Of a stretch of 64,000 bases of DNA, positions 35,472-36,427 are shown piece after piece (the first letter of the stretch is position 1; every line of letters starts with the position of its first letter). Both the position numbers and the translations under genes were made by a program. Source of the stretch: an uncultured Ignavibacteria bacterium (GTDB taxonomy: Bacteria; Zixibacteria; MSB-5A5; SM1-73); the NCBI GenBank assembly GCA_964403165.1, contig CAYOFL010000001.1, positions 6,521-70,520 on the forward strand, given 5' to 3'. The notes under the pieces were generated by a model that worked only from the letters and a program-made list of their open reading frames with translations, searched no databases and had not been told where the DNA came from.

Positions 35472-35570
35472 GTAGGTCAACCATGTCCTTTAGGACTGGT
35501 TGACGAATTTTAAAAACAATCTGTCAAGCAGGCTTTCCTACGGATCCGTTGGACGCCATGCTTGACCTAC
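35472..35570. repeat. REP family C (copy C1), flank of RAYT3
   Basis: GTAGGTCAACCATGTCCTTTAGGACTGGTTGAC...GTCAAGC...GCTTGACCTAC. Confidence 0.8.
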
Positions 35571-35587
35571 GTTTTTTTTACATTTTT

Positions 35588-36100
35588 TTACTCCAAGTTC
35601 ATTTCTTCCAAATCTTTCAATTCCGTATGGCCCCAACCGACTTGATAGATTTCTTTTTTCAGCCAATGCAGATAACTGGATTGTTTAAAATCCTCCGGTC
35701 GATCAACAATTCTATGCTTGACCGGATTATAGTGAATATAATCAAAATGTCTCTTGAAGTCATCTTCATTTCTAATGATATGATCCCAAAAGCGATATTG
35801 CCACACTCGAATATTAGTTTTGATTCCATTCAGCTTTTTATATTGGCGGGAGAAATTATCTTTGAGTGACTGCATAACTACAGATACGTTTTCTTTTAAA
35901 GGCAAAATCAAAAAATGAAAATGATTAGGAATCAGAACATGAGCATAAAGTTTATAGGGATGGATTTTCTTCAGATTTTTTGCGATTTCCCAGAATAAAG
36001 ATATATTTTCTGACAATGTAAAAAGATTCTTTCTTCTATAAGTCACGCAGGTGATGAAATAAACGGCTTCCGGAATGTAGTATCTTCGAATGTTTGTCAT
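35588..36100 (-). CDS. REP-associated tyrosine transposase (RAYT), copy 3
   Basis: HUH motif NHFHFLI and Tyr motif DYIHYNPVKHRIV. The ATG at 36100 is preferred, because the track's TTG at 36112 lies inside REP C2. Confidence 0.8.
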   Translation of the reverse strand: MTNIRRYYIPEAVYFITCVTYRRKNLFTLSENISLFWEIAKNLKKIHPYKLYAHVLIPNHFHFLILPLKENVSVVMQSLKDNFSRQYKKLNGIKTNIRVWQYRFWDHIIRNEDDFKRHFDYIHYNPVKHRIVDRPEDFKQSSYLHWLKKEIYQVGWGHTELKDLEEMNLE

Positions 36101-36103
36101 AAT

Positions 36104-36183
36104 GTAGGTCAACCATGTCCTTTAGGACTGGTTGACATTATTTTGTCAAGCACCCCCGATGAATCGGGGGATGCATGACCTAC
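36104..36183. repeat. REP family C (copy C2)
   Basis: GTAGGTCAACCATGTCCTTTAGGACTGGTTGAC...GTCAAGC...GCATGACCTAC. Its right end overlaps the stop codon of the eno remnant. Confidence 0.8.
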
Positions 36184-36353
36184 AAATTCTTTATGTTGTA
36201 AAAAACCTTCTTTCCCAAAAACTTCGCCCTCTCTTTCAATTCCTCTTCTATGCGCAACAGGCGGTTGTACTTGCAGATTCTGTCTGTTCGTGAGGCGGAG
36301 CCGGTCTTTATCTGCCCGGCATTGGTCGCCACCACCACGTCGGCAATAGTAGA
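36180..36353 (-). pseudogene. eno: 3' remnant (last 57 codons) of a canonical enolase gene
   Basis: Manual translation gives [57 protein letters not shown], close to the consensus enolase C-terminus. An in-frame TAA lies immediately upstream, and REP C3 starts 4 nt away. Confidence 0.8.
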
Positions 36354-36357
36354 TTAT

Positions 36358-36427
36358 GTAGGTCAACCATGCCCTTTAGGACTGGCTGACGTCTTTTGCC
36401 AAGTAGGCTTCGTTATGCTTGACCTCC
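36358..36427. repeat. REP family C (copy C3, right end degenerate CTCC)
   Basis: GTAGGTCAACCATGCCCTTTAGGACTGGCTGAC...GCTTGACCTCC. It supplies the last 17 codons and the stop of the 940-aa ORF. Confidence 0.75.

Follow-up and report, generated by a model that had tools for sequence, protein, structure and literature searches.

A probable REP-associated tyrosine transposase with its own low-copy family of paired REPs beside a permuted enolase gene in Zixibacteria

We analyzed a stretch of 64,000 nucleotides (the window) from an uncultured bacterium of the Zixibacteria lineage (contig CAYOFL010000001.1) and describe in it a gene for a tyrosine transposase associated with repetitive extragenic palindromes (REPs), that is, a REP-associated tyrosine transposase (RAYT). 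This gene, RAYT3, is the third of its kind in the window and is accompanied by three copies (C1, C2 and C3) of a REP family that we call REP-C or family C. Very probably, RAYT3 is an HUH/Y1 endonuclease for single-stranded DNA, of the same type as E. coli TnpA-REP, and REP-C is its cognate repeat family. The system gives the impression of a RAYT that has been passed on vertically and is now largely quiescent (domesticated), not of an expanding population of REPINs (REP doublets that form hairpins). One of the elements, C3, forms the 3' end of a gene for a permuted enolase, which sits where some relatives carry canonical eno, and an in-frame remnant of eno (the eno stub) lies next to it. Coordinates of all features are collected in Table 1.

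The assignment of RAYT3 is carried by profile matches and by alignment to a protein of known structure. Among the NCBIfam models, RAYT3 scores 134.7 bits against the 'REP-associated tyrosine transposase' model NF047646 (REP_Tyr_transpos, cut-off 80) and has zero match to the IS200 model NF033573, and in Pfam it is matched by Y1_Tnp ('Transposase IS200 like'). An end-to-end alignment of residues 1-157 to TnpA-REP of E. coli (4ER8, E 1.2e-19) places PNHFH opposite PEHMH and DYIHYNPVKH opposite DYIYINPVKH. The catalytic set of RAYT3, which comprises the HUH motif H60-F-H62, Tyr121 within DYIHYNPVKH, N125 and H129, corresponds to H59/H61, Y115, N119 and H123 in 4ER8; these are the active-site residues of TnpA-REP, for which a GTAG tag and cleavage at CT have been described (PMC3479197).

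A TTG within C2 lengthens the RAYT3 open reading frame (ORF) by 4 codons (MTYI), and the JGI gene call on the identical sequence starts at this TTG, giving 174 aa. The initial annotation had regarded the extension as artificial, and we agree that it is a false start, since the alignment with 4ER8 begins at the downstream ATG, as do the 170-aa orthologues. An exact look-up of the 170-aa protein returned no match because the public gene call begins at the TTG. RAYT3 is present in one copy in the window, no tnpB gene was found in its neighborhood there, and its orthologues (81-86% identity, the close ones forming only 10 clusters) occupy the same slot in at least four lineages. Two of the orthologues are damaged towards the C-terminus. 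At related locus L001 (we label related loci L001, L002 and so on) the coding sequence (2274-2780) is interrupted after residue ~140 by a fused REP, whereas at L002 it is frameshifted around residue 138 (539-1052). The cut point in L001 lies upstream of G152, and TnpA-REP truncated after G152 has higher cleavage activity in vitro.

The REP-C elements share a 33-nt core (GTAGGTCAACCATGTCCTTTAGGACTGGTTGAC), which occurs on the plus strand at 35472 and 36104 without mismatches and at 36358 with 2 mismatches. These are the only copies within the window, and 0 are expected by chance (100 shuffles). Repeat finding and alignment agree on three elements of 99, 80 and 70 nt with a common right end (...ATGCTTGACCTAC). 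This bears out the initial annotation, both in its placing of three elements of one family and in its recognition of a third RAYT flanked by GTAG-tagged palindromes of its own, the latter resting also on the NF047646 score and the 4ER8 alignment. Each element is a doublet: GTAG followed by a hairpin (L type), a spacer of 7-18 nt, and then a second hairpin followed by CTAC (inverted R type). In the L type, GTAG is followed by an 8-bp stem (GTCAACCA/TGGTTGAC), which an inner GTCC/GGAC stem continues beyond a bulged T, so that C1 begins with GTAG and a hairpin of 8 bp, T bulge and 4 bp. The R type can be written as GTAG GTCAAGCA-T-GGC...GCC TGCTTGAC and is seen in C1 as a long-loop hairpin with CTAC. 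The L halves of C1 and C2 are identical.

Folding agrees with this anatomy. In both the minimum-energy and the centroid structures, C1 and C2 form two independent hairpins that leave GTAG and CTAC unpaired (z of -6 to -8; C1, -24.3 kcal/mol and z -6.8; C2, -23.7 kcal/mol and z -7.1). C3 folds weakly (-8.3 kcal/mol, z -1.4), and both substitutions in its L half disrupt stem pairs. When 19 different REP-C hairpins, taken from the window and nine related loci (10 in all), are compared, 90% of the cells are paired, as opposed to 37% or less in slid controls. Compensatory changes affect 4 pairs of the hairpin, one of them a C-G to G-C swap that distinguishes the L type from the R type. Within C1 and C2, mutual complementarity is limited to the 14-nt ends, and a single long hairpin of the REPIN kind is not formed. 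In gene orientation, the window has the arrangement [R> <L] RAYT3 [R> <L], whereas L001 and L004 have R> ... RAYT ... <L. REP-C is thus made of paired REPs in inverted orientation, similar to bacterial interspersed mosaic elements (BIMEs), and is not REPIN-like.

The distribution of family C was studied by searching the L-type core in 596 Gb of species-representative genomes and by scanning the JGI metagenomes with a looser pattern. The genomes contain 1 match, in a Candidatus Zixiibacteriota metagenome-assembled genome (L001), at the syntenic locus. The metagenomes contain 4 loci, of which L003, L004 and L005 carry ftsB and represent the same slot; the fourth, L002, has a HEPN gene upstream and the frameshifted RAYT mentioned above. 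RAYT3 orthologues lie between REP-C hairpins in L001, L002 and L004, and the L003 contig ends inside the RAYT. Copies or remnants of REP-C are still found at the spot without a RAYT in L005, L009, L011 and L013-L016, including a decayed R-type REP immediately after the eno stop in L015 and L016. The window sequence is present in two salt-marsh metagenomes, in which the only copies of the L half are those of C1-C3. Across a Zixibacteria clade, the position of RAYT3/REP-C is fixed between eno, or the gene that replaced it, and ftsB. From its distribution in the genomes, the JGI metagenomes and the source metagenomes, family C appears to be very low-copy, RAYT-centred and vertically inherited. 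This fits published RAYTs, which are single-copy and vertically transmitted (PMC5581495).

Several further features of this slot were observed in relatives. The cargo between REP-C copies differs, being a PD40 beta-propeller gene of 312 aa bracketed by REP-C in L009 (8844-9935) and an unknown 238-aa ORF without a Pfam match beside REP-C in L005 (536-1467). The edges of REPs coincide with the boundaries of variable segments, and a close strain in run X4 has unrelated sequence directly left of C3. Another GC-rich palindromic repeat (CCCTCTCCCC…GGGGAGAGGG…TAGGGTGAGGGG), absent from the window, is present in the eno-ftsB intergenic region of relatives (L003, 745-830; L005, 625-700; L013, 3610-3690; L014, 3740-3800; L015 and L016, intergenic).

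By analogy with TnpA-REP, RAYT3 would bind the REP-C hairpin and its 5' GTAG on single-stranded DNA and would cut a nearby CT dinucleotide through Tyr121, with the metal held at H60/H62. It could also transfer strands and in this way rarely duplicate or move REP doublets. The domesticated, quiescent look of the system follows from its fixed position, its very low copy number and the presumably rare movement of REP doublets.

The gene that ends in C3 encodes an enolase with permuted domain order, consisting of an N-terminal membrane and HExxH (M50-like) region, then the barrel (eno 145-420), and then the N-domain (eno 58-125). In Pfam, Enolase_C (320-604 of the 940-aa ORF) precedes Enolase_N (630-783), and in BLASTP comparison with canonical eno the 145-420 segment likewise precedes the 58-125 segment. 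The full-length model TIGR01060 gives 193.9 bits, which is below the cut-off of 300, and a collinear full-length match is lacking. In the alignment with canonical eno, the barrel retains the residues for catalysis and metal binding (E, E, D, E, D, K, H, K). The family is widespread in candidate phyla of the FCB group; scoring of 8000 candidates gave 869 matches, from WOR-3, Cloacimonetes, Hydrogenedentes and Zixibacteria, and no description of it was found in the literature searched.

The permuted enolase gene stops at 36376-36378 within C3. The final 16-17 residues of the protein are encoded by C3, so that its tail, (M)EVKHNEAYLAKDVSQS, is a translated REP. The initial annotation had proposed that C3 supplies the final codons and the stop of the 940-aa ORF, which is correct; its description of an enolase-fusion ORF remodelled by C3 holds for the gene end and has to be revised otherwise, as the gene belongs to a widespread permuted family and the event is old. 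A REP-encoded tail (MEVKHNEAYL... or variants) is found in 5/5 of the closest orthologs (77-100% identity), whose 3' end DNA contains an R-type REP in decay and then one of the L type, and more distant homologues end in ...LPVY(xx). The age of the event follows from the decayed element being common to all five close orthologs. C3 is an old copy of REP-C that lost its hairpins after becoming the 3' end of the permuted enolase gene.

Permuted-type loci share the gene order 729-aa gene, X, ftsB, recO, and in L001, L015 and L016 slot X is occupied by a canonical 431-aa eno. Eno-type and permuted-type loci have a homologous upstream part (alignment columns ~362-470), which comprises a promoter-like region, the leader, the ribosome-binding site and the first ~5 codons (MPxI), and at the right junction C3 abuts eno codon ~372. 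With the promoter and first codons of eno upstream and C3 at codon ~372, the locus alignment indicates that the permuted enolase replaced eno codons ~6-371 in situ, apparently in an ancient event that kept the eno promoter and first codons. As the permuted enolase occupies the place of canonical eno on the eno promoter, this suggests that it is probably a working enolase. An uncharacterised, widespread, membrane-anchored permuted enolase would be of interest in its own right, and its enolase function is directly testable.

Two further arrangements were considered for this locus and rejected. Read-through or frameshifting that would fuse the stub to the permuted enolase is precluded by two in-frame stops (TGA and TAA) that precede the stub in the eno frame within C3, with the gene's own TAA further upstream. 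A split enolase, with eno 1-371 encoded elsewhere beside another REP-C, was sought with eno 1-376 as a query; the search returned Zixibacteria enolases of ~431 aa and a few shorter entries (326-411 aa), none of them of ~375 aa with a REP-derived tail. The sequence itself is reliable. It is true that the 33-nt repeat causes breaks in short-read assemblies and that the Logan contigs end at its copy in C2 (36107), so that an assembly chimera might be suspected at the junction of permuted enolase, C3 and eno stub. However, the locus is 100% identical in three independent assemblies (one JGI, two Logan); one JGI contig covers the whole region, two Logan contigs cover the gene, C3, the stub and C2 with even depth, and the identical junction is found in another lineage and sample (L013, 85% protein identity). 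Given the identical assemblies and Logan contigs that stop precisely at the C2 repeat, we reject a chimera as an extremely remote explanation.

The eno stub matches TIGR01060 at positions 372-424 (E 1e-20) and is 89-96% identical at the amino acid level to functional Zixibacteria eno. Its TAG stop (36180-36182) is the TAG of the terminal CTAC/GTAG of C2, in agreement with the overlap proposed in the initial annotation. L013, in which the permuted enolase is 85% identical, has the same junction of C3 and stub (stub at 3429-3602) and no RAYT. The two stubs differ at 29 sites, distributed over codon positions 1/2/3 as 5/1/23 (P = 5e-7), with 22.3 synonymous and 6.7 nonsynonymous differences versus a neutral expectation of 23% synonymous (P = 3e-9), and neither has a frameshift or a stop. 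The proportions of synonymous and nonsynonymous differences (pS/pN) between the window and L013 are 0.62/0.056 for the stub, 0.41/0.076 for the adjacent permuted enolase and 0.68/0.23 for ftsB. Judged by its substitution pattern, a stub evolving neutrally since the shared junction should not look like this, and a fragment with the substitution pattern of a working gene offers a test case for recombination versus selection on gene remnants.

It is quite possible, if somewhat short of probable, that the stub is a dead remnant that has been overwritten repeatedly by homologous recombination with functional eno of co-occurring relatives. Fewer differences separate the window stub from the functional eno of L015 and L016 (19-20 per 165 nt, identical KERAK) than from the L013 stub (29), the GQRAQ motif of the L013 stub is that of another functional allele (P0187), eno-type and permuted-type loci are equally distant from the window in their flanking genes, and low-depth eno fragments from other organisms are present in the same samples. 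The differences between the stubs begin only 15 nt from the common junction, however, so that crossovers nearly at the junction would be required; the contrast of 29 versus 19 differences amounts to only ~1.4 SD, and no mosaic pattern is visible in the stubs. Translation of the stub, for example by re-initiation at GTG GTG GTG (36330-36338) after the permuted-enolase stop, would yield a ~52-aa peptide under purifying selection. This would account for the identical junction in two lineages and for the mostly synonymous differences (22/29), the third-position bias and the absence of frameshifts and stops. No close eno paralogue that could act as a conversion donor was seen when source-metagenome contigs were compared with L001 eno and, at 80% likeness, with the stub; this search revealed no second Zixibacteria-type eno and only short patches from other organisms, which is suggestive, not conclusive. 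We nevertheless regard selection as unlikely, since the window has no obvious ribosome-binding site for the stub, an enolase C-terminal fragment has no known role and the permuted enolase already has the equivalent segment, the stub has been lost without replacement in L009, L011 and L014, and the two stubs do not group together.

For RAYT3 and its hairpins, another conceivable account is an autonomous insertion sequence (IS) of the IS200/IS605 type composed of R hairpin, RAYT3 and L hairpin, with the hairpins as its ends and the doublets as deletion derivatives. The outermost conserved hairpins do flank the gene as GTAG...CTAC in L001 and L004, the Pfam family is named after IS200, and the L002 unit has a different upstream neighbor, the HEPN gene. 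Nevertheless, the same slot beside ftsB is used in nearly all relatives, the gene is single-copy in the 64 kb and has no TnpB partner, and its close orthologues amount to only 10 clusters. In addition, the RAYT equivalog is passed, whereas the IS200 model has no match to RAYT3 and only sub-cut-off matches to the other two RAYTs. These observations make an IS very improbable. It is still harder to see the REP-C hairpins as host terminators or mRNA-stabilising stem-loops that stand beside the RAYT by coincidence. They are very stable and lie at gene ends (after eno or the permuted enolase and before ftsB), but they show no terminator-like site on either strand and no Rfam match. They have the conserved unpaired GTAG/CTAC tags, and the inverted pairing on either side of a RAYT, by which RAYT substrates are recognised (PMC3479197), and the gene ended by C3 has been retained although the hairpins of C3 are gone.

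Several points weigh against our interpretation of RAYT3 and REP-C as a low-copy, vertically inherited RAYT system. The census consists of exact pattern matches, partly in fragmentary metagenomes, and the scanned collections lack the window's own contig. Many dispersed copies, the hallmark of REPs and REPINs, are not seen for REP-C. Some dispersal of the R type is indicated, as the R half of C1 occurs on several further contigs in both source metagenomes (summed word depth 67 and 80 versus 10 and 14.5), and the depths of one such contig of 1166 nt (6.9 and 11.6) resemble those of the host contigs (7.6 and 12.2). Restriction of family C to this locus, an outcome that the initial annotation had named as contrary to its reading, is therefore largely what was found for the left half but not for the right half of C1, which has a few extra copies. 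The integrity of REPs and the presence of a RAYT are also not cleanly coupled, intact REPs being found without a RAYT in L005 and L014. Finally, the replacement junction (...GACCTAC ATAAT C/TACTATTGCC, the slash marking the junction) falls at a CT dinucleotide, the cleavage site of TnpA-REP (PMC3479197). This is compatible with a role of RAYT3 in the replacement of eno, but CT is too common a dinucleotide to count as evidence for one. We consider it improbable that the REP-C slot is an exchange site serviced by the RAYT, in which cleavage between C and T and strand transfer put a REP-tailed permuted enolase into eno and captured its promoter, the eno remnant being selected as a micro-ORF or a recombination handle. 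If true, a domesticated REP transposase would have brought about the replacement of a core metabolic gene, an event of which few cases are documented.

Table 1. Features of the RAYT3/REP-C locus and other RAYT genes in the 64,000-nucleotide window.
Feature	Position	Strand	Evidence	Remarks
RAYT3 coding sequence	35588-36100	minus		170 aa; ATG 36098-36100, stop 35588-35590
C1, REP-C doublet downstream of RAYT3	35472-35570	plus	repeat finding, alignment, fold	L-type REP 35472-35504, spacer 35505-35522, inverted R-type 35523-35570
C2, REP-C doublet upstream of RAYT3	36104-36183	plus	repeat finding, alignment, fold	L-type 36104-36136 (contains TTG 36110-36112), spacer 36137-36144, inverted R-type 36145-36183
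C3, decayed REP-C doublet	36358-36427	plus	core match, alignment, fold	L-type 36358-36390 (two stem-breaking changes), R-type 36398-36427 ending CTCC
Permuted enolase	36376-39180	minus		934 aa from MPTIK; 940-aa ORF uses upstream ATG
Left junction of the replacement: putative promoter region from eno, with its leader, ribosome-binding site and ~5 initial codons	39166-39290	minus	locus alignment	
eno stub	36180-36353	minus		in-frame remnant, canonical enolase residues ~372-430 (57 codons)
ftsB (DivIC)	35039-35458	minus		right-hand neighbor anchoring RAYT3/REP-C synteny
RAYT1	~15057-15538	plus	motif scan, NF047646	
RAYT2	32000-32533 (approx.)	minus	motif scan, NF047646	

The other two RAYTs in the window also pass NF047646 (109.5 and 103.6 bits), and both reach 32 bits with the IS200 model, under its cut-off of 55. 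Pairwise identity among the three proteins is 26-32% across 134-152 aa. Judging by these comparisons, they are divergent lineages of one family. The initial annotation had proposed three divergent pairs of RAYT and REP family in one genome, and the identities together with the distinct families A, B and C agree with this. The pairwise comparison that it had called for confirms the divergence and at the same time contradicts the claim that the RAYTs share only the HUH and YIxxNP motifs, since they are homologous over ~130-150 aa and belong to the same NCBIfam equivalog. Family A, around RAYT1, has the same architecture as family C (GTAG-hairpin, spacer, hairpin-CTAC) with another stem (GTAGGGACAGGG...), so that calling family C unrelated was an overstatement. 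Family B, around RAYT2, carries the tag GTTG, not GTAG, and the pairing of each RAYT with a GTAG-type palindrome thus applies to families A and C only.

These additional palindromes show some features of their own. A family A doublet (GTAGGAACAGGG...GGCTGTCCCTAC) is located at 26878-26939, 11 kb from RAYT1, and family A is in this respect dispersed in the window, unlike family C. RAYT2 is flanked at 31727-31990 and 32548-32840 by arrays of two alternating GC-rich GTTG-tagged hairpins, which include a direct repeat of 230 nt (96% identical) on each side of the gene and across which spurious ORFs are called. More GTAG hairpins, several with a TTCAT loop and none adjoining a RAYT, are found at 3755-3808, 9045-9071, 12285-12308, 18489-18590 and 29724-29747. 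As their stems are unlike those of A, B and C, the genome has more than three types of GTAG palindrome.

RAYT3/REP-C provides a Zixibacteria example of one extreme among REP/RAYT systems, with an apparently domesticated RAYT and hardly any repeat copies, and the survival of REP-C at one locus after loss of the transposase bears on why single-copy RAYTs persist. Rickettsia palindromic elements and other repeats are read into coding sequence as internal in-frame insertions. The REP in the permuted enolase ORF resembles them in having been taken into a reading frame and in being kept in orthologs, and differs in being a C-terminal extension that arose through read-through and whose hairpins have decayed. 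RAYT3 resembles TnpA of the IS200/IS605 family (IS608, ISDra2) in its predicted HUH/Y1 chemistry, in the imperfect hairpins that lie subterminally and carry a guide tetranucleotide, and in the bracketing of the gene by hairpins; it differs in lacking an IS200 model match, a TnpB partner and multiple copies, and in being fixed by synteny.

The coexistence of REP/RAYT systems in one genome has already been described in P. fluorescens SBW25, where a separate REPIN family goes with each of three RAYTs (PMC3116915, PMC5581495). As in the window, the coexisting RAYTs of SBW25 are divergent and stand next to their own palindromes; they are single-copy and vertically inherited at a fixed locus, as RAYT3 appears to be. 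The SBW25 REPINs, however, are long single hairpins present in hundreds of copies, whereas REP-C doublets form two hairpins and are nearly confined to the RAYT locus. More generally, the RAYT3/REP-C system appears to agree with the published RAYTs in single-copy vertical inheritance but lacks their usual large REP population (PMC5581495). The closest comparison is with E. coli TnpA-REP, a RAYT of group 2 (4ER8, PMC3479197). RAYT3 belongs to the same fold family and matches it end to end (E 1e-19), and conservation extends from the HUH motif and the Tyr to the N and H of helix alpha-D. In both systems an imperfect hairpin with an unpaired 5' GTAG is the repeat unit and the gene is flanked by its own REPs, and the inverted arrangement of two REP types in the L/R doublets of REP-C parallels that of the y and z REPs in BIMEs. 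The differences are that the hairpin sequence of REP-C is another one, that the host belongs to the Zixibacteria, that a handful of copies is present instead of hundreds, and that RAYT3 is known from sequence.

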